From a virus (Duplodnaviria > Caudoviricetes), in the IMG/VR virus record IMGVR_UViG_3300029822_000042, positions 1 to 34,916 of that record: a stretch of DNA of 34,916 bases; one strand, given 5' to 3'. Under the pieces are notes generated by a model. It had not been told where the DNA came from, did not search any database, and saw only the letters and a program-made list of their open reading frames with translations. Of the stretch, positions 21,682 to 31,658 are shown piece after piece; position 1 is the stretch's first letter; every line of letters starts with the position of its first letter. Made by a program: the position numbers and the translations under genes.

Positions 21682-23685
21682 TCAAGCGACTTCCTTAACG
21701 CCACCCCAGTTCGGCCCTACGTCGAGCCCAGCAAGGACCGGGATGCGGAGGGGGATGGCTGTCTCCATTATATGTCGCATCTCCCTGAAGGCCTCGTCCA
21801 CGACGTGACCGCCAGGGTCGCTAAAGTCAAGCTCGTCGTGAACCATGAGGCGGGGGACCCCTGTCACCGCAAATACGCCTGACTTGTAGCACTTGAGCAT
21901 GGCCATCTTGGCGAGGTCAGCTGCCGACCCCTGGAGTAGACGGTTGAGGGCCTTGTGTTGGTACGCACGCTTGACCTTACCATAGTGGAGGATGGCCTCA
22001 CCATACGGCAGGGCAGGAGCCCGGTCCTCGTCGCCTCGGCCCCACGAGTCGGGCTCCCAAAGGTCGAAGCGGCTGCGCCGGCCGAGGATGGTCTGGATGA
22101 CCCCTGTGGACGACGCTTGGTTCATGGCCCAGCGCATTGTCGGCTTGACAAACGGGACGCCGCGATGGTAGGCCTCGAGGAAGTGCTTTGCGGCCTTCTC
22201 CCCAAGCTTCAAGTCATGGGCAAGCTTCTCTTCCCCCATACCGAACACAAGGCCGAAGTTTACGTTCTTGACCGGGCGGCGGTCAAGCTTTTGGTTAAGC
22301 TCCTTCTCAATGAGTTCCTGTGTGAACGCATGGTAATCAGTCGCGGGGTTGGTGATGTATCGTAGGCGCGCCTCGTCCGACCCCGGTCCGACGGCATAGT
22401 GGACAAGGAAACGGTACTCAATCTGTGAGTAGTCGTATTTCCTCCACCTCTCGTGACCGGGATCGATGGTGAAGGCCCTTCGCACCTTCTTGCCCAGCTC
22501 CGACCGAACGGGGATGTTCTGGAGGTTAGGGTTTGAACTTGAGAAGCGGCCTGACCGCGTGCCACCGTCATCACCCCGCAAGGGGTGGAAGGAGCAGTAA
22601 ATCTTGCCATTGACATTACTGTTGAGTATGTAGCTCTCGAGGAAGGTGCCCCGGATCTTGTGCAGGTGCCTTATCTCTGTGATGAGCTTGGGCACTGGAT
22701 GGTCGAGCTTCTCGAGGTAGTCTTTCTTAAAGCTGGGCTTCCCACCCTTAGTCCGGGGATATGGCAACCCGACCTTGTCAAAGGCCTTGACTATAGAGGC
22801 AGGAGCGTTCACGCTTACCTGTACGCCCGCAAGGTTGTCAAGCTCCCTGTTGAGTCGAGTGGCCTCTCCTTCCAGCTCGTCGCGCAGTTGTGTGGCCTCC
22901 TCAATGTCCACAGTCACGCCAGCGTAGCGCATGTCGACGAGTAATCGTATGAGCTCGCACTCCATACGGAATAGGTCGACAAGCCCCTGGGAGGCGAGTT
23001 TCTCGTGGAGTATGGGGGCGAGGCGGATGGGGAGGTCGGCATCACCTTCACCATACGGTCCGACCAGCCGCGGCGGTGCCCGGTAGAGGTCCTTCCTCCA
23101 GACCTTGTCGGAGGTGCCATAGAAGTCCTTGCACCATTGCTTGACAACCTCGGCGACCTTACCTTCTCCTAGATACTTACGGGACAGCACTTCGAGGTTG
23201 ACAAGCGCCCGTTCATCCAGTAGGGCCTCGGCAAACTGCACGTCCACAAGCTCGCCAGCAACCTCAATCCCCTCACTGCGCAAAGCCCCTACATCATAGA
23301 TAAGGTTCGCCCCGACCTTGGGCTGCAGGGGGTTTGACAAGGTGTCCCGGAGCCACGCAAGGGCGCGGTCAGGGTTGAGGTTCATCTCCGGCTCAACAGT
23401 GTGGCGGATGGGAAAGTAGCCCCGATAACCGTCCCCAGTGCCAACGCTAAAGCCGCAGATGTAACCCTTGCCCCGTGCCCAAAACGGGCCGTTTGTGTCG
23501 AGCTCGGGGTCGTATGCCTCAACGTCGACGGACAACACACGCGCCGCGGAGAGGTTGGGGTAATACGCTGGCGGCCGCCATCCTGTTTCAGGGATTGGCG
23601 GCATCGGCCGGACGGTGGCCGCCCTCTTGCGCCCCTGGGAGGGGAGGTCCTGCCAAAAGAGCCCAACGTTGTCAAAGCGACTCAT
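21682..23685 (-). CDS. polA: DNA polymerase, family A, with 3'-5' exonuclease domain
   Basis: Exo motifs DVE, NLIYD, YGEGD; polymerase motifs SGRFSSSNPNLQNIP, DYSQIEYR, KNVNFG, LLQGSAAD, VHDEL. Confidence 0.95.
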   Translation of the reverse strand: MSRFDNVGLFWQDLPSQGRKRAATVRPMPPIPETGWRPPAYYPNLSAARVLSVDVEAYDPELDTNGPFWARGKGYICGFSVGTGDGYRGYFPIRHTVEPEMNLNPDRALAWLRDTLSNPLQPKVGANLIYDVGALRSEGIEVAGELVDVQFAEALLDERALVNLEVLSRKYLGEGKVAEVVKQWCKDFYGTSDKVWRKDLYRAPPRLVGPYGEGDADLPIRLAPILHEKLASQGLVDLFRMECELIRLLVDMRYAGVTVDIEEATQLRDELEGEATRLNRELDNLAGVQVSVNAPASIVKAFDKVGLPYPRTKGGKPSFKKDYLEKLDHPVPKLITEIRHLHKIRGTFLESYILNSNVNGKIYCSFHPLRGDDGGTRSGRFSSSNPNLQNIPVRSELGKKVRRAFTIDPGHERWRKYDYSQIEYRFLVHYAVGPGSDEARLRYITNPATDYHAFTQELIEKELNQKLDRRPVKNVNFGLVFGMGEEKLAHDLKLGEKAAKHFLEAYHRGVPFVKPTMRWAMNQASSTGVIQTILGRRSRFDLWEPDSWGRGDEDRAPALPYGEAILHYGKVKRAYQHKALNRLLQGSAADLAKMAMLKCYKSGVFAVTGVPRLMVHDELDFSDPGGHVVDEAFREMRHIMETAIPLRIPVLAGLDVGPNWGGVKEVA

Positions 23686-24638
23686 GCATACATCCCGACG
23701 ACGACACCCCGAAGCATGTCACCGAACCAAGGGCACGCCGCAGGGTACGGTTCGAAATCTATGGTCTTGACAACCTTGCGGAGAAGGAGTAGCTGCTCGA
23801 TGTTGAAGCACCCCTTCGATGGCAGGCCCTCGACCTCTACGGAGGCCCCACAGTCTTCCGCTGTACCTGTGGACACACGACTCCCGAGCATGTAGCCCCG
23901 ACAGTCATCGCCGGCGAAGGGTTTTAGTGACTCAAGGGCCTCGAATAGGCCCTCCGGCACAGGCTGGGGCTTGCAGCCTTCACCAGTGTCAAGCACGCGG
24001 TCGACGTCCGGCCATTCCGTCGTCGACAGCTGCGACCGCAGCCAGCGCCCCGACTCGTAGAGGAACGTAATTGACGACTCGCCGACCTGTATCTTGGATG
24101 GCTGTTCGCCAATACGAATGAGCTCGGCGACGGCGTCCTTCGGCACGTTAATCTCGACCGGGAAGGGGACGCCCATCCACCGCTGTGCCAAGATGATGTT
24201 ATTGGTGACGTAAGCCGATTGCCCCCGGAAGAGGATGCCACGAGCCCAAGGGCGGGAGGCATCCTCGGCAATGAAGGGTGCCAACACTGTGAGGACATCT
24301 ACCATCCCAGCAGGTGCTTCGATTATTTGGCCCTCCGGCTCAATCCTTGGGAACTCATCTTGGCAACACTCGACATAGGCGGTGAACTTACCACTCTTAA
24401 CAGCGAGGCGCCCCGACGGGGTCATATGAAGCTGGACGGTATCCTTGCAGGTCTGGATTGCCTTAATGAACGGTGTTGCCCGCGGGTTACAGTCGATATC
24501 GAGAGCTATGGGGCTTGACAGAGCCATCGTCCCGTTGTAGCCGAGGATGGTGCCGCCCTTAATGCGAAAGTGAGTGAGGGCGGGGATAAAGTCTTTACGG
24601 GCGACGGCACCTTGGACGAACTTGAGGTCGTTGATCAC
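23682..24638 (-). CDS. DNA polymerase III beta-subunit-like sliding clamp
   Basis: 318 aa with a repeated-domain pattern (IPALTHF, EFPRI, DASRPWARGILF, WPDVDRVL, RGVVVGM); translationally coupled to the polymerase. Confidence 0.75.
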   Translation of the reverse strand: MINDLKFVQGAVARKDFIPALTHFRIKGGTILGYNGTMALSSPIALDIDCNPRATPFIKAIQTCKDTVQLHMTPSGRLAVKSGKFTAYVECCQDEFPRIEPEGQIIEAPAGMVDVLTVLAPFIAEDASRPWARGILFRGQSAYVTNNIILAQRWMGVPFPVEINVPKDAVAELIRIGEQPSKIQVGESSITFLYESGRWLRSQLSTTEWPDVDRVLDTGEGCKPQPVPEGLFEALESLKPFAGDDCRGYMLGSRVSTGTAEDCGASVEVEGLPSKGCFNIEQLLLLRKVVKTIDFEPYPAACPWFGDMLRGVVVGMYA

Positions 24639-25048
24639 GGCGTAAGCTCCCTTGCATCCCAGCCTGCCAGGAATGCCCTGTCCTTGTCCCGGTCAGCCCA
24701 ACGCTTAAGCTCGATGATGGTGCTCGTTGTAGCCACTGGCACGCCTTGGATGGTGAGAAACGGCTGATTGAGAAAGCCAAGCCGGCTGCTATTGTCCTCA
24801 CAGTTAATATAGTCTACGCGGATACCGTACAGGGTTGCCTCTCCACTTCCAGTGGATGACCCCTCCTTTGGAGTCGCCGACATAGGCACGGACTCTACGA
24901 GGAAGTCAACGTCGTTTACTTTTTCGACGTTGTAGCCAAGCCACCGGAGCCCAGCTGTGCCCACAAGGACATGCCTAATCCCTTCCTGCTTCATTTTGGA
25001 CGACGCTTCAATGACTGCCTGTTTAACGTAATGCTCCCGGCTATGCAC
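24635..25048 (-). CDS. Minimal nucleotidyltransferase-like protein (pol-beta superfamily)
   Basis: VLVGTAGL...NDVDFLV (G-x-x-x...DxD), VDYI, ELKRWADRDKD; AAGGAG RBS with GTG start. Confidence 0.65.
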   Translation of the reverse strand: MHSREHYVKQAVIEASSKMKQEGIRHVLVGTAGLRWLGYNVEKVNDVDFLVESVPMSATPKEGSSTGSGEATLYGIRVDYINCEDNSSRLGFLNQPFLTIQGVPVATTSTIIELKRWADRDKDRAFLAGWDARELTP

Positions 25049-25058
25049 TAGGCGCTCC

Positions 25059-25970
25059 TTAGAACAGGGTTATTTGGTCTGGCTTGAAGGTGTGATTATT
25101 TAGGCTTCTTGCGATGTAGTTGTAGCTCCAGGCATTAAACGCCCAGCGCACAGCGTAGTCGGCTTGCAGCCTGTCAAGCGTAAAGCCGACCGACTCGACC
25201 AGCTTGGCCACGGCTTCCCGTTGCACTGCCGGGATGGTGTCGACGTGTTGGTTCGCAACCTTCCTGCTGGGGTGTTCTTTGGACACGTGAAGGATGCCGT
25301 GGCCAGGGATTTGGATGGCACCGTTGGACCCTATTTGGATCCACGAGGATGAGTCAACAGAGAACCAAGGGTAACGCTCCATGAGGCCAAGCGAGGTGAG
25401 GCCGAAGCCGTGAACCTTAATACGGGGGCGACCGGAACCATCGGTGAGGTAGCGTTCCCAAATCCTGTCAAGCCAAAAGTAGAGTTGGGGGTTAGCGATA
25501 GGCACCATGCCGCCGATCGTGATGTACTCGTAATTCTTGACGTAATGCTCGAGGTAGCGTTCGTCCTCACCATAGTGAAAGCACGGCAGCGGCCGAACAC
25601 CGTGCGCCTCCATCGTCATTTGGTTCTGGTAGGTCTTGAGGGGGTCGCCAATACCGTCGAGGACGGAGGCGAGGAGAGCATTGCCGTCGGTGGCTATGAT
25701 GTCACGATTTTGCTTAATATAGTCACAATATGCAACAATGTCTACCTCGATGCCCTGAGTATAGGCTGAGAAGGCCCCTGAGTCCAGGAACACGCGGGTT
25801 CCGTCGCGGCGAATCTTGTTGACATACTGGTCTTTATGGATGTAATGGTACGACTCGAGGATATGCGGCGCATGGTCCCGATGGTAGCGTTCCGACTCTG
25901 TCAAGCGCATGTAACCTGCGCCGCCCCACTGGAAGCTCGAGGTGTATGCCGCGGCAAGGTACAGGTTCAA
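25059..25970 (-). CDS. dpdA: DpdA-like DNA 7-deazaguanine transglycosylase (TGT fold)
   Basis: FLDSGAFS, VLDGIGD, PCFH, IGGMV, VHGFG, SVDSSSW motifs; adjacent to folE/queD/queC/queE; TTG start at 25970 behind GGAGG. Confidence 0.8.
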   Translation of the reverse strand: MNLYLAAAYTSSFQWGGAGYMRLTESERYHRDHAPHILESYHYIHKDQYVNKIRRDGTRVFLDSGAFSAYTQGIEVDIVAYCDYIKQNRDIIATDGNALLASVLDGIGDPLKTYQNQMTMEAHGVRPLPCFHYGEDERYLEHYVKNYEYITIGGMVPIANPQLYFWLDRIWERYLTDGSGRPRIKVHGFGLTSLGLMERYPWFSVDSSSWIQIGSNGAIQIPGHGILHVSKEHPSRKVANQHVDTIPAVQREAVAKLVESVGFTLDRLQADYAVRWAFNAWSYNYIARSLNNHTFKPDQITLF

Positions 25971-25984
25971 GGTGACCTCCAAAA

Positions 25985-26054
25985 GGGGTGCCCGGGACTC
26001 GAACTCCGGCGACAGGTGGCGGACTATCCCTGTCGGTGTGCCGTTACGCACCCC
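25985..26054 (-). ncRNA. tRNA-like (tmRNA tRNA-like-domain-like) structured RNA element
   Basis: 7-bp acceptor-like stem GGGGTGC/GCACCCC, unpaired GG-containing segment, 7-bp stem CGACAGG/CCTGTCG, T arm with TTCGAGT loop; no CCA. Confidence 0.6.
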
Positions 26055-26060
26055 GAACAA

Positions 26061-26711
26061 CTACTTCACAAGCTCCATGAACTCTGTACGGGCTTTGAGG
26101 CTTTCACGCATCACGCCGCGGAGGGCACTGGTGATGGTGACGTGCCCTTGCTGGCAGATACCGCGCGACTCCATACAGAGATGGCGTGCTTTGACGACGA
26201 CCCCGACCCCTGTGGGCATCAAGTGTTTGTCAAGGGCGTCGGCAATCTGGTTCGTGAGGCGCTCTTGGACCTGAAGACGCCTGGCATAGATGTCGGCAAG
26301 TCTGGATAGTTTAGACAAGCCCACGATCTTGCCGTTGGGAATGTATGCGATAGACACCGTGCCGAAGATGGGGGCGAGGTGATGCTCACAGTGAGAATAG
26401 AGGGGAATGTCCTTGACAAGCACCATCTCGTCGCATCGTTCGGCACCGTCCTCGAATACCTTGAGAACGGCTGCCGGGTCCTTCCCGTAGCCCGCGCACC
26501 AGAACGCCCAGGCCTTCGCCACGCGAGCAGGAGTCTCGAGGAGCCCCTGGCGTGAGGGGTCCTCCCCAACAAGGGCGAGGAGGTCGGCGATGACAGAGTG
26601 AAGCTGCTCCATCTTAGTGCCTGGCGAGCCGCACCCGATGCAGTCGTCAACTCCACCCTGGCCCTCGCATGGCTTTTGGTCTACAGGGCAGATGTAGCTT
26701 GGATTATACAT
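26061..26711 (-). CDS. folE: GTP cyclohydrolase I
   Basis: GEDPSRQGLLETPARV, SHCEHHLAP, GLSKLSR, RRLQVQERLT, HLCMESRG. Confidence 0.96.
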   Translation of the reverse strand: MYNPSYICPVDQKPCEGQGGVDDCIGCGSPGTKMEQLHSVIADLLALVGEDPSRQGLLETPARVAKAWAFWCAGYGKDPAAVLKVFEDGAERCDEMVLVKDIPLYSHCEHHLAPIFGTVSIAYIPNGKIVGLSKLSRLADIYARRLQVQERLTNQIADALDKHLMPTGVGVVVKARHLCMESRGICQQGHVTITSALRGVMRESLKARTEFMELVK

Positions 26712-26716
26712 CTTGG

Positions 26717-27169
26717 CTAGACCTCATAGAAAGCGGAGCACTTGCGGGTTTCCTCGACCACGACACGGTCGAGCGTGATGCCGGTATCCTTCAGTTGCAG
26801 GGGGCCGACAGTAGTTGCGAGGTATTCCGCAATGTTCTCTGCTGTGGGGTTGAAGGGGACAACGACGACACCCCGGCTGTCGGCCGTCTGAAGGATGCCA
26901 CGCAGCGGGTCTTGGTCCCACACGAGGAACTTGTGGTCCCACTTCTCCTCAAGCCAGTCACACAGCAACGTCTTAATGACGGAAAAGTCAATGACCCTCC
27001 CGACGCCGTCGAGCTCGCAGTTGTCCAGCTCGACCCGCAATGACCCCGCCACACAGGCGAAATAAATGCGGTAGTTGTGCCCGTGAAGGTGCTGGCACTT
27101 CCCCTCATGGCCGACAACCCGATGGCCACAGCTTATGTCGTGGTAGCGCACTGCGGTGTGGTTTCTCAT
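26717..27169 (-). CDS. queD: 6-carboxy-5,6,7,8-tetrahydropterin synthase
   Basis: GHR...KCQHLHGHNY, IDFSVIK, WDHKFL, NPTAENIA, EET. Confidence 0.93.
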   Translation of the reverse strand: MRNHTAVRYHDISCGHRVVGHEGKCQHLHGHNYRIYFACVAGSLRVELDNCELDGVGRVIDFSVIKTLLCDWLEEKWDHKFLVWDQDPLRGILQTADSRGVVVVPFNPTAENIAEYLATTVGPLQLKDTGITLDRVVVEETRKCSAFYEV

Positions 27170-28008
27170 ATCAGGTGGGCTTTCTCCAAGTAGTCAACGA
27201 CGTTCACTTCCTTGTAGTTCGGAGTTTTGGGCAGGTGCATTCGTCCTTCGTTCCAAGCCCGGAGCACGAGCGGGTCAGGCACGTTGGCGTCTTCGAAGCC
27301 CTTGGCGCGCAGTAAGCTGGCGTGGTCCTTGCCGGTCGGAGGGTACTTGCCATCATACGCCGTGTGACTCCAGGCGAGGGCGGCGTAACAGCCCGGCAGC
27401 TCAAGGGCCATGAGCACAGACTGTGCCTTGGTGAGCCGCATGAGTGGGGCGAGGATGGTGATGGGCTGGGGAGCCCCTGGCTCGCCGGTGAAGGTGCCAA
27501 GGTTGCATGCTTGGCCGAGGGCTGTGATGAACTTCTGGCGACAGTCAGGGTAGCCACCATAGTCCGCCTCACAAACGCCGGTGACGAGTGCCTTTGCCCC
27601 GTAGTGTGCCGCCCTGTTGGCCGCGATGGTGAGAAACAGCTGATTGCGCATCGGCACAAACGTTTTCTCGATACCCTTGCCGGGGAGGCTGTGGGCATCA
27701 TTGTATTCCTCGAGGCCAACCCCCGACACGAGGGGTGAGGTACTCCTGAGGACCGAAGGCCCGAGACGGATCACCTCGTGGGCTTCTATGCCGATGTCGG
27801 CGGTTTTGTTGTAGCATGCCCTGGCGACACGGAGCACGGCCTCCGCCGCTTTGACCTCTGCGGCGTGGAGCTGGCCATACTCGAACGTTACTGGGAACAC
27901 GCGGTAGCCGTGATGGAGTGCCCAAAAGAGGCACGTCGTCGAGTCCTGGCCGCCAGAAAACACGACAACAGCTGCGGGCCTGTTGAGCGGTAGGTCTGCC
28001 TGTTTCAT
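27166..28008 (-). CDS. queC: 7-cyano-7-deazaguanine synthase (variant lacking zinc ligands)
   Basis: FSGGQDSTTC, YGQLH, TFVPMRN, GYPDCR, APLMRLTK. Confidence 0.93.
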   Translation of the reverse strand: MKQADLPLNRPAAVVVFSGGQDSTTCLFWALHHGYRVFPVTFEYGQLHAAEVKAAEAVLRVARACYNKTADIGIEAHEVIRLGPSVLRSTSPLVSGVGLEEYNDAHSLPGKGIEKTFVPMRNQLFLTIAANRAAHYGAKALVTGVCEADYGGYPDCRQKFITALGQACNLGTFTGEPGAPQPITILAPLMRLTKAQSVLMALELPGCYAALAWSHTAYDGKYPPTGKDHASLLRAKGFEDANVPDPLVLRAWNEGRMHLPKTPNYKEVNVVDYLEKAHLI

Positions 28009-28731
28009 CTATTCGACTCCGATGATTTTGTGGATCTGAAGGGAGAGGCGGTAACCGAACCGGAGGCAGCTATCCATCGCCGCCTTGAGGTTCGCTTGGT
28101 TAAGAGTAGGGTCCTTGGCATCCTCCGGCTGAAGGTAGATGTAACGATTCGGCATCTTGGGCGGTGGTAGGGCTATGCGCTTCTGCACCTTGGGAGGTTG
28201 GCCGCACGGCAACCTCGCTCCGAAACCGAACAGGGGGAGGCCGTCTTCCTCGCTTAGGTCACCAGCCCTCACGACGTACTTAACAGCCTTGGCTAGGCTG
28301 ATGACTGTACGGTCGACCTCCGAGGTCTTGGGGCTACAAACGACGCTAAACTCTGCATCGCCCCATGGCAGCCCCGGTGCAACGATTGTGCCGTTGGTCT
28401 CCACCTGGACTCGGAACCCGCCGTCTATCAGGTCGTAGACCAGCGGCGCGATGTCCTGCCTCATAGGCTCACCCCCAGTAAGCACTACGAGCCGCAGCTC
28501 GCCCGCAAGGGCCTTCACCTCCTTATAGAGTTCGTAGACGTCGACAGTGCGCCGACCGGAGGTGTAGTCTGTGTCACAGCCGGGGCATCGGAGGTTGCAG
28601 CCTGCCAGTCGCACGAACACGCACGGCTCCCCGACGAATGGCCCCTCCCCTTGTATGGACTTGAAGACGCTACGGACACTGAGCGTGTCATTGTTGCTGT
28701 AGTGTGTCTTCTCTGCCTTCTGGTTGTTCAT
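28009..28731 (-). CDS. queE: 7-carboxy-7-deazaguanine synthase (radical SAM)
   Basis: SIQGEG, CNLRCPGCDT (CX3CX2C), TGGEP, ETNG, SPK, LQP, SLQIHK. Confidence 0.95.
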   Translation of the reverse strand: MNNQKAEKTHYSNNDTLSVRSVFKSIQGEGPFVGEPCVFVRLAGCNLRCPGCDTDYTSGRRTVDVYELYKEVKALAGELRLVVLTGGEPMRQDIAPLVYDLIDGGFRVQVETNGTIVAPGLPWGDAEFSVVCSPKTSEVDRTVISLAKAVKYVVRAGDLSEEDGLPLFGFGARLPCGQPPKVQKRIALPPPKMPNRYIYLQPEDAKDPTLNQANLKAAMDSCLRFGYRLSLQIHKIIGVE

Positions 28732-28758: not shown

Positions 28759-28787
28759 ATTTTAGGGTTAGACTGACTGACTGTCAA
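28759..28787 (-). promoter_or_regulatory. Sigma70-type promoter of the que/dpdA/replication operon
   Basis: TTGACA-N17-TAAAAT, followed by a GGAGGAG RBS. Confidence 0.85.
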
Positions 28788-28877: not shown

Positions 28878-29447
28878 TTACTCGACCTTGACGTCGGCGG
28901 CGGCAGGCGCCTCGGCGGCGGGCTTGGCCTCCGGGGCCTTGCGCTCGGCCTTCAGGCCGTGGAACTTGCGCCACTTGCCGTACTGCGTCGCGATGGTGGC
29001 CTCGTTGATGCCCTCGGCCTTGCACTTCTCCATCACGTCCTTGCGGGGCGCCGGCTCACCGCGGGCGGCGCTGATCTCGTCGGCAACCTCCCACACGCGG
29101 CCGGTCTTGGTGCCGCTGCTGGGGCGAGTGACGCCGTTGGCCTTCGGCAGCTCGACGCGCGGGGTCTTCTCGGGCTTGGCCTCGGTGGTCTTGGTTTCGG
29201 TGGTTTCGGTGGTCTTGGTCATGACGTTCCGTCCTTGCTGCTGGGGGTTGGTGTTGCCGATGTCCTGCTTGAACTGAGGGGGAGTGTAATCTGAGGTAGC
29301 CGTGTTGTCAACAACCTTTTTCGATCCCGCTTCCCGACGCCTCCTGAGCCAGGCCTCGGCCTCGCCCTTGTGGTCAACGGCCGCACCGGACAGTCCTACA
29401 AGGTTCTCGTCCTTGTCAACGTCGATGAAACCGAGCTTCGTCTTCAT
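28878..29447 (-). CDS. Putative DNA-binding protein, paralog 1 (long form 189 aa; short form 114 aa from 29222)
   Basis: C-terminal domain VWEVADEI...RKDVMEKC...GINEATIATQYGKWRK; both ATGs have an RBS. Confidence 0.75.
   Translation of the reverse strand: MKTKLGFIDVDKDENLVGLSGAAVDHKGEAEAWLRRRREAGSKKVVDNTATSDYTPPQFKQDIGNTNPQQQGRNVMTKTTETTETKTTEAKPEKTPRVELPKANGVTRPSSGTKTGRVWEVADEISAARGEPAPRKDVMEKCKAEGINEATIATQYGKWRKFHGLKAERKAPEAKPAAEAPAAADVKVE
29283..29311 (-). promoter_or_regulatory. Sigma70-type promoter embedded in coding sequence
   Basis: TTGACA-N17-TACACT with an upstream A-tract, ahead of the in-frame ATG 29222. Confidence 0.8.
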
Positions 29448-30237: not shown

Positions 30238-30723
30238 TTAGTCGGCCTCGGTCAGGGTCTCGCCGCGGAGGGCCTTCTTCCACAGCTGGATCTGCGTGCG
30301 GGCGGTGTAGTAGGCGATGCCCTGGCGGTCGCACTCAGCCATGATTTCCTTGCGGCTGACGTTGGGGTTCTTCGCGAGCATCGCGTCGGCGATGTGCCAG
30401 ACCAGCTTGGTCGGCGACATCGGGACGCTGCGGTGCCGCTTGTCGTCGTCGTCCTTGGCCGGCGCGGCGACCTCGTCTTCGGGCAGCACGCTGGGCGAGC
30501 CACCGGCGACCGGGGCGGCATTCAGCTCCATGATGCTCTCGACCGTGGCCTCGGCGACCGGGGCGGCCTCGACCTCGGCGACCGGGGCGGCCTCGACCTC
30601 GACGTACTGGTACGCGAACCCGCCCTTGGCCTTGACGATTTCGTAGGTCTCGATACCGGCGGTCTTGGCGGCGCGACGAACGTTGCTGCGGGAGGAGTAG
30701 GTCTTGCTGGTGATGGTGGTCAT
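30238..30723 (-). CDS. Putative DNA-binding protein, paralog 2
   Basis: Start MTTITSK; C-terminal domain LVWHIADAM...RKEIMAEC...GIAYYTARTQIQLWKK; has its own promoter. Confidence 0.75.
   Translation of the reverse strand: MTTITSKTYSSRSNVRRAAKTAGIETYEIVKAKGGFAYQYVEVEAAPVAEVEAAPVAEATVESIMELNAAPVAGGSPSVLPEDEVAAPAKDDDDKRHRSVPMSPTKLVWHIADAMLAKNPNVSRKEIMAECDRQGIAYYTARTQIQLWKKALRGETLTEAD
30549..30596. repeat. 24-bp tandem duplication encoding VEAAPVAE x2
   Basis: CCTCGGCGACCGGGGCGGCCTCGA twice, with a third partial copy near 30503-30519. Confidence 0.85.
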
Positions 30724-31223: not shown

Positions 31224-31658
31224 TCAATGGATTTGTTGCGCACCCTCCGACGGGGTCGGCTGCTTGTCGCGCTTGTGGAGGATCTGGTACTGTGTAGAGG
31301 CGGTCGCCTTGTTGACGCCGGCCGCGATGCACGCGCTGATCACGTCCTTGCGCGGGTGACCCTTCATGGCGGCATAAATTTGGCGGCACTTGGCAACCGG
31401 ACCATCCTTTTCCCTAGGGACTGGGGCGGGTTTGACCGCATCGGTCTTAACCTCTTCGGGCTGCACGAAGTAGAGGCGAAACAGGGCCTCGGTGACCTTG
31501 CGCCTACCCTCCGCGACCGTCGGGAACTTGGCCAATTTGGATCCCGTCACTTCGCGGTACACCTCGACGAGCTCCTCCATTTGGCTCTTGTCCTGAACCA
31601 CGAAAACAAGGTCAATGACGCGCTTGCCGACAGGGTCAACCACCGCGTAGATTGCCAT
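31224..31658 (-). CDS. Putative DNA-binding protein, paralog 3
   Basis: AAGGAGG RBS before MAIYAV; C-terminal GPVAKCRQIY...RKDVISAC...GVNKATASTQY. Confidence 0.75.
   Translation of the reverse strand: MAIYAVVDPVGKRVIDLVFVVQDKSQMEELVEVYREVTGSKLAKFPTVAEGRRKVTEALFRLYFVQPEEVKTDAVKPAPVPREKDGPVAKCRQIYAAMKGHPRKDVISACIAAGVNKATASTQYQILHKRDKQPTPSEGAQQIH

Follow-up and report, generated by a model that had tools for sequence, protein, structure and literature searches.

The record analysed here in full, referred to below as the window, is a virus sequence of 34,916 bases (about 54% complete, 60% G+C) in which a 70-nt segment that can be drawn as a tRNA without an anticodon lies between folE and dpdA, two genes of a DNA-modification operon. 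The locus raises the questions of whether this shape is a real RNA structure, what kind of RNA it resembles, and what it might do directly in front of dpdA.

The operon and the start of dpdA

Head and baseplate genes lie on the plus strand of the window and a DNA-metabolism block on the minus strand, in the order queE-queC-queD-folE-gap-dpdA-ORF137-processivity factor-family A polymerase. The queE-queC-queD-folE-dpdA cluster is a known 7-deazaguanine DNA-modification set, as described in the accessible parts of PMC6884629, PMC7544227, and PMC10484667. A second assembly, which may come from the same sample, is identical at every base between 24600 and 28800 (depth 63.8). Profile matches agreed with the gene identities first assigned to folE (PF01227) and dpdA (PHROG 887). 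The following features of the block are used below:

28759..28787, minus strand: σ70-like promoter ahead of queE, 11/12 (consensus match only)
26717..28731, minus strand: queE-queC-queD, the remaining preQ0 pathway (Pfam Radical_SAM, QueC, and PTPS)
26061..26711, minus strand: folE, GTP cyclohydrolase I, stop at 26063-26061 (PF01227, E 2.1e-69)
25968..25980, minus strand: dpdA ribosome-binding site GGAGG, 5-nt spacer, and TTG start (homologs begin at the same residue)
25059..25970, minus strand: dpdA, 303 aa, 7-deazaguanine DNA transglycosylase (PHROG 887, E 3.5e-74)
21682..25048, minus strand: 137-aa ORF (24635-25048), polymerase processivity factor, and family A DNA polymerase, downstream of dpdA

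The queE-queC-queD order is identical in Pseudomonas phage PSASB_03, and DpdA is 62.7% identical to a protein of that phage; the nearest DpdA (71% identity, P0003) is on a 2.3-kb contig, and three members of the DpdA cluster are one protein with differing starts. The promoter ahead of queE, just before which lies a terminator-like hairpin (28845-28818), is the likely source of the transcript crossing the gap. The 137-aa ORF between dpdA and the processivity factor gave no Pfam or PHROG match; by eye, it contains what we take to be a nucleotidyltransferase-like G..G...D.D pattern.

The reading frame of dpdA is open upstream from a TTG at 26060, and database copies of DpdA with 330-333 aa exist, so that the gap could in principle be coding and lengthen DpdA by 27-30 residues at the N-terminus, in keeping with gene-caller annotations. 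We consider such an extension highly improbable. The best DpdA homologs are mostly 303-306 aa long and align from TTG 25970; 28 of the 29 aligned homologs have three or fewer extra N-terminal residues, and the sole longer extension is unrelated. GGAGG stands 5 nt before TTG 25970, and no GGAGG-like site precedes the upstream starts. Because homologs align from a start that is preceded by this site, the 90-nt folE-dpdA gap is most likely untranslated despite its open frame, and the start at 25970 proposed in the initial annotation holds.

The tRNA-shaped element and its probability by chance

A 6-nt spacer separates the folE stop from the element, which ends 4 nt before GGAGG. Its parts are as follows:

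25985..26054, minus strand: whole element, 70-nt tRNA-shaped fold without anticodon (sequence and folding)
26048..26054, minus strand: acceptor-like stem, 5' strand; G3 pairs with C70, not with U70
26036..26047, minus strand: D-like loop, stemless, 12 nt, containing GG
26010..26035, minus strand: central 7-bp stem (26035-26029/26016-26010) with a 12-nt loop (pair probability 0.97-1.00)
25992..26009, minus strand: T arm of 5 bp with one bulged A and a canonical TTCGA loop (sequence and folding)
25985..25991, minus strand: acceptor-like stem, 3' strand, whose ACCCC can alternatively pair with the dpdA Shine-Dalgarno sequence (folding)
25981..25984, minus strand: U4 run, with U at the discriminator position and no CCA

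Every segment, stem, and position reported earlier (26054-25985, minus strand) was found as described, as were the absence of a 7-nt anticodon loop, of CCA, and of G3.U70; A73 is absent as well. All 19 pairs are Watson-Crick, and G1-G2 are present. ARAGORN and Rfam, which the initial annotation had proposed as checks, returned nothing significant: ARAGORN made no tRNA or tmRNA call on the window, and Rfam gave nothing at gathering threshold and no RF00005 or RF00023 match at E ≤10. The element falls outside the tRNA family (RF00005), having no D stem and no 5-bp anticodon stem with a 7-nt loop. There is no second copy in the record, and a blastn search of 50,697 phage records with the gap sequence produced nothing beyond matches of 22-34 nt, which are at chance level.

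The best weak Rfam matches were to mascRNA (RF01684; 17.8 bits of the 42.5 required, E 0.55) and sRNA-Xcc1 (RF02221; 18 bits of 53, E 1.9). mascRNA/menRNA, the best by E value, resembles the element in being a tRNA-like shape within a longer transcript. The same is true of the P1/P7 C4 RNA precursor, described as an RNase P substrate in the accessible part of PMC11143913; unlike it, the element has neither a C4 match nor a convincing antisense target within the window. Its best complement on the minus strand, a 10-nt stretch of queC (27568-27559) facing the central loop, was scored without a control and is probably due to chance, and an antisense role of the C4 kind was rejected. YrlA Y RNA is likewise a tRNA mimic without an anticodon, as far as the available text of bioRxiv 10.1101/312249 describes it. 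It differs from the element, whose free ends are closed by the acceptor-like stem and which carries no extension for Ro60; no Ro60 gene was found among 28 ORFs scanned in this partial record, and there was no Rfam match.

Folded in isolation, the 70-mer has the drawn structure as its minimum free energy fold (−29.1 kcal/mol). Its stability is not unusual (z −0.91; 36 of 200 shuffles were as good). Its architecture was scored as a T arm with an abutting 7-bp acceptor and an inner stem of 6 bp, by criteria that were fixed after the element had been seen. The full architecture occurs once in the window and in none of 400 dinucleotide shuffles of it, while the T arm and acceptor alone occurred in three of the 400. 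A Markov simulation of 710 Mb produced the full architecture 14 times, or 0.0014 per window, and the T arm with acceptor at 0.023 per window. The shape is thus unlikely to have arisen by chance in a single window. About 250,000 windows were read in the scan, over which ~350 such shapes would be expected at 0.0014 before an intergenic fit is required; because of this number and of the post hoc criteria, chance keeps some weight at the level of the scan, and the evidence against it is good without being conclusive. An acquired and rebuilt tRNA-like or mini-tmRNA gene appears a more likely origin than pure chance.

Message-less tmRNAs and other anticodon-less shapes

The closest known RNA is the message-less (CDS-less) tmRNA of mycobacteriophage DS6A, a kind of RNA that inhibits host tmRNA according to the accessible parts of PMC4131195 and PMC11915505. 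The element and this TLD-only tmRNA (RF00023) share a 7-bp acceptor starting with GG, a stemless D loop with GG, one central stem, a TTCRA T loop, the 62-94 nt size class, the lack of an anticodon and a message, and an intergenic position in a phage. The element differs in having no G3.U70, U at position 73, a fully paired CGAC, no GAC linker, and a bulged T stem.

A search pattern taken from the 5' part of the element found four loci, with two distinct canonical mini-tmRNAs among them. A pattern taken from canonical mini-tmRNAs found at least 120 loci (~460 stretches estimated), with 85 distinct rows having an acceptor. Message-less mini-tmRNAs of 61-94 nt (pattern scans; loci L180-L299, L176-L179, L313, L323, and L369) are common in the uncultured phages of IMG/VR. 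ARAGORN missed all four of those on which it was run, and supplements of tmRNA databases could list further CDS-less phage genes.

Two covariance models were built. R1 was made from 24 mini-tmRNAs with the window element left out, and its structure covaries: two-sided changes were present in 16 of 22 pairs, with a score of 0.64 versus 0.06-0.16 in slid controls. R1 gave 43-95 bits for 78 chosen loci and 8-31 bits for tRNA-rich control loci. The element scored 10.3 bits (E 1.6), fifth of 29 matches in the window. R2 was made from 78 sequences, four of which had been found by patterns taken from the element; with R2, the element was the best match of the window (14.2 bits, E 0.15), the next being a plain hairpin at 11.6.

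G3.U70, A73, TCGAC, and the GAC linker were present in all 78 members, the last two largely by virtue of the search pattern. A stemless D loop with GG was present in 77 of the 78 and is present in the element, which also has the 7-bp acceptor stacked on a T arm with a TTCRA loop; the bulged A does not occur in members. An encoded ACCA was found in only 26 of the 78 members, so CCA does not define mini-tmRNAs, and a ribosome-binding site was present 15 nt or less downstream in seven. The element departs from the members in having G3-C70 instead of G3.U70 and U73 instead of A73, and it scores 10-14 bits versus at least 43 for members. When a true mini-tmRNA is aligned in Rfam, its CGAC lies opposite GGAC, with G.A pairs between them. 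The CGAC of the element instead forms Watson-Crick pairs with GUCG, and its alignment to the model shows GAC as a deletion. The G.A elbow formed by TCGAC and the GAC linker has a role in SmpB binding. Of the tmRNA-like layout seen initially, the likeness to the head of a message-less tmRNA stands, while the CGAC match is superficial. Judged from its sequence, the element has the layout of the class yet fails membership: the kind is known (a phage tRNA-like RNA without message or anticodon), and this copy differs from it at each of the identity elements.

These differences bear on the proposal that an off-type mini-tmRNA is cut from the operon message and serves in trans as an uncharged decoy for SmpB, for tRNA-cleaving defence nucleases, or for tRNA-binding enzymes. 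The order of the parts and their similar spacing are those of message-less tmRNAs, the class is frequent in phages, a near downstream ribosome-binding site has precedent in it, and the shape is favoured when the RNA ends at the U4 run (see below). Nevertheless, we consider the proposal unlikely. Elements shared by all 78 members are absent and the score is low, which weakens the SmpB-decoy idea in particular; even other off-type elements score 25-35 bits. The element has no promoter of its own and no anticodon loop for an anticodon nuclease, and R2 found no full mini-tmRNA in 50 dpdA-phage records (its matches there, at 20-25 bits, were two tRNAs, an off-type element, and a fourth that is likely due to chance).

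Among the matches listed in five viral pattern scans and one genome scan, there was no homolog of the element. One scan gave 10 loci, two of them tRNA genes and the remainder without an acceptor. Another gave mostly ordinary tRNAs among the best 120 of ~620 matches (89 distinct rows). A scan for closer look-alikes gave 119 of ~200 matches, 15 with a loose T-loop-like word within 25 nt; by eye, none of these 119 had a T arm with an acceptor. The bulged T-arm word was found 45 times in bacterial genomes, mostly in coding sequence by eye, and the upstream part of the element accompanied it in none of the 45.

A scan for the paired CGAC/GTCG elbow gave 61 loci. Five of them (L452, L480, L448, L470, and L469), picked by a pattern drawn from the window element, combine 6-7 acceptor pairs with a perfect T stem, score 25-35 bits, and receive no ARAGORN call. 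L452:560-630 (minus strand) is a mini-tmRNA variant that has G3.U70 and ACCA together with an elbow paired throughout; a promoter-like site immediately precedes it, and against Rfam tmRNA it scores 39.8 bits, below threshold. In L470:1185-1254 (plus strand) and L480:1197-1271 (minus strand), an ATG 2 nt after the acceptor stem opens a DNA polymerase gene and an endonuclease gene, respectively, and 3' processing of these elements would leave a nearly leaderless message. L448:1197-1278 and L469:1197-1266 (both minus strand) are irregular tRNA-shaped elements; the central stem of the latter has a 7-nt loop, but there is no D stem. A sixth shape, L647:1501-1572 (minus strand, record G024), was not selected by motifs of the window element; it is a 68-nt anticodon-less tRNA shape without G3.U70 (20.6 bits), missed by ARAGORN, in a dpdA-carrying phage (one in 50 dpdA records) and far from dpdA.

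All six share with the window element the acceptor, short stemless loop, central stem, and T arm. L448, L470, and L647 also have no G3.U70, and L470 and L480 abut a start codon. They differ from it in the T stem, which is perfect in six of six, and in having A73 in five of six; they are heterogeneous and have no clear sequence homology to it. The element may belong to a loose class of anticodon-less phage tRNA shapes, and the existence of irregular tRNA shapes in phages would raise the odds of such an origin.

The element could also be inert, either as a decayed relic of a mini-tmRNA or tRNA or as a look-alike that arose by chance in a GC-rich spacer, of which no part beyond the central hairpin would matter. 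The missing homologs, the model scores close to those of plain hairpins in the same window, the recurrence of the bulged T-arm word mostly within coding sequence, the ~350 shapes expected over the scan, and a central stem that alone is stable in context are all in line with this explanation. Set against it are the 19 Watson-Crick pairs, the exact fit to the gap, the location on the sense strand, G1-G2, the GG of the D loop, the canonical T loop, the failure of all 400 shuffles to reproduce the shape, and the real odd tRNA-shaped RNA of L647 in such a phage. On balance, inertness seems less likely than not, and the complete Watson-Crick pairing would speak against decay.

Upstream regions of dpdA, folding in context, and a possible role in cis

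We compared dpdA loci from viral and metagenome contigs (160), plus one, plus three annotated phage regions; 158 had at least 120 nt upstream, of which 124 were distinct by their last 60 nt. A T arm with an acceptor was found upstream of dpdA in none of the 124 distinct regions and a T-loop-like word within 200 nt in two; the mini-tmRNA model found only one tRNA in 100 dpdA loci. Structural conservation in relatives, whose absence had been named in advance as counting against the proposal, was thus not seen in any of the 124 regions, and the link to DpdA drawn in the initial annotation did not survive: the element is not tied to DpdA. Instead of interacting with DpdA, it is likely to serve as a local signal for cutting or stopping the message, or to be a leftover.

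The link had taken the form of an autoregulatory operator, in which DpdA, a paralog of tRNA-guanine transglycosylase (TGT), would bind a tRNA mimic carried by the dpdA message and so occlude the ribosome-binding site. The 4-nt distance to GGAGG and the homology of DpdA to TGT (stated in the accessible part of PMC10164549) are compatible with an operator. Apart from the comparative result, the same source describes the bacterial DpdA surface as shaped for double-stranded DNA and TGT as reading a GUN anticodon loop, which is absent here, the only UGU being inside the central stem. We regard the operator as very unlikely.

folE and dpdA lie within 20 nt of each other in 28 of the 124 regions, so no element is needed in general. 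The distance exceeds 140 nt in 61, no folE was found in five, and the remaining 30 distinct relatives have a short gap (21-140 nt). ORFs lie directly upstream of dpdA in L001:2500-3000 and several other loci; by eye, they have what we presume to be an HNH-like motif. These ORFs and the many long distances suggest that the folE-dpdA junction is a frequent insertion site.

Among the 30 short gaps, a hairpin of at least 7 bp was found in 22, a σ70-like promoter of at least 8/12 in 20, and both in 15, as counted without a shuffled control and with several of the 30 being close kin. A recurrent unit was seen in L005 (Microcystis phage Me-ZS1), L059, L060, L064, L066, L084, L109, L122, L138, L146, L148, and L153. 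It combines a σ70-like promoter, whose −35 box mostly falls within the final codons of folE, with a hairpin that is not conserved in sequence and starts around the −10 box or shortly after it, and with the ribosome-binding site of dpdA. The hairpin in relatives usually ends 1-10 nt before the Shine-Dalgarno sequence, and the outer stem in the window ends 4 nt before GGAGG. The window element thus occupies the same slot with a GC-rich stem near the Shine-Dalgarno sequence; it differs in folding into three stems instead of the simple hairpin of 7-14 bp seen in relatives, and in lacking a good promoter match (best inside the gap, 6/12), whereas their hairpin is usually accompanied by a promoter. 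In L056 and L115, a multi-stem fold after a promoter-like site replaces the simple hairpin in a 126-nt gap, with no Rfam match at E 0.1. No description of an RNA element in the folE-dpdA gap was found in the literature covered, which was mostly open-access main text.

The predicted fold depends on where the RNA ends. The central stem is the only part predicted in all contexts (0.97-1.00). The pair probability of the acceptor was 0.90 in RNA 26060-25981 and 0.63 with 40 more nt of folE, and it fell to 0.02-0.35 once GGAGG was added, because alternative pairings then compete: the 3' strand can bind the Shine-Dalgarno sequence, and the 5' strand can bind the start codon or the T-arm region. Folded as part of the full mRNA, the element took the tRNA shape in only a minority of predicted structures (acceptor 0.00-0.23); mini-tmRNA members in flanking context had a median of 0.81, with values <0.25 in 22 of 78. 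In a 109-nt piece, the tRNA-like and start-codon-pairing folds were within 0.2 kcal/mol of each other. These models, which leave out tertiary contacts and kinetics that would both favour the tRNA shape, predict it as the dominant fold only for RNA whose 3' end is the U4 run.

The Shine-Dalgarno sequence had an unpaired probability of 0.10-0.25 in six contexts. When the element was removed, the energy for opening the ribosome-binding site changed from 12.1 to 5.5, from 9.0 to 5.2, and from 8.5 to 8.2 kcal/mol, so that opening was eased in only two of three settings. An on/off switch driven by the folE ribosome was rejected, as the Shine-Dalgarno sequence stayed paired in the model when the RNA was blocked as far as +6 or +10 past the stop. 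The U4 site was absent from the 18 sites listed by a consensus terminator scan, and U4 follows a multibranch fold, not the GC hairpin with at least five U in 8 nt of an intrinsic terminator. A weak stop at U4 is possible.

The processing-signal and attenuator readings of the initial annotation appear the likeliest working roles, and our preferred reading, which we put forward tentatively, is that the element acts in cis to cut or stop the message between the preQ0-synthesis genes and the dpdA-clamp-polymerase genes. Beyond the folding prediction, we infer that one transcript from the promoter at 28787 would run across the gap, and that the nascent tRNA shape would cause a partial stop at U4 or be cut by host tRNA-processing nucleases, the candidate enzymes being RNase P for a cut at G1 and either RNase Z or RNase E for one at the U run. 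Either event would provide the 3' end of the queE-folE message and set the amount of dpdA message with a free ribosome-binding site. The released RNA of 70-74 nt would be unchargeable, and once GGAGG is made, the tRNA shape would yield to folds that pair the Shine-Dalgarno sequence. RNase Z acts on CCA-less precursors. RNase P cuts phage RNAs and mRNAs besides tRNA, and bacterial RNase P prefers a 3' CCA, as far as the accessible part of PMC11143913 goes.

The reading in cis is favoured by the position of the element in the promoter-hairpin slot of relatives, by the acceptor probability at the U4 end, by the low chance frequency per window, and by similar shapes in other phages. As the gap promoter is poor, transcription of the dpdA, clamp, and polymerase genes probably relies on read-through from 28787-28759; an efficient terminator would then be harmful here, and the short U4 run is consistent with that. 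The reading is weakened by the occurrence of the element in one genome only, so that covariation is not measurable, by its ordinary stability, its minority share in full mRNA, and a short U4 run unlisted as a terminator, and also by the lack of CCA, the uneven effect on opening energy, and the relatives that need no element.

If the element is a working signal, the phage has swapped the promoter-hairpin unit of a DNA-modification operon for a tRNA-shaped module read by the host, which would be a simple way to balance preQ0 supply against the inserting enzyme and would give a function to anticodon-less tRNA shapes that gene finders miss in phages. At present it is a single unconserved example, and the comparative evidence is against self-control of DpdA via a tRNA mimic. 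A more speculative and improbable generalisation is that the loose class consists of anticodon-less, non-alanine tRNA-shaped modules rebuilt from mini-tmRNAs as nuclease cut sites before DNA-metabolism genes (here dpdA, the polymerase in L470, and the endonuclease in L480), so that host tRNA maturation would switch on the next gene and free an uncharged decoy.

Elsewhere in the window, three diverged 69-nt repeats (28980-29048, 30289-30357, and 31287-31355) lie within minus-strand ORFs of 189, 244, and 158 aa with no assigned function; they apparently encode a common small domain, and two of the ORFs match PHROG 7864.
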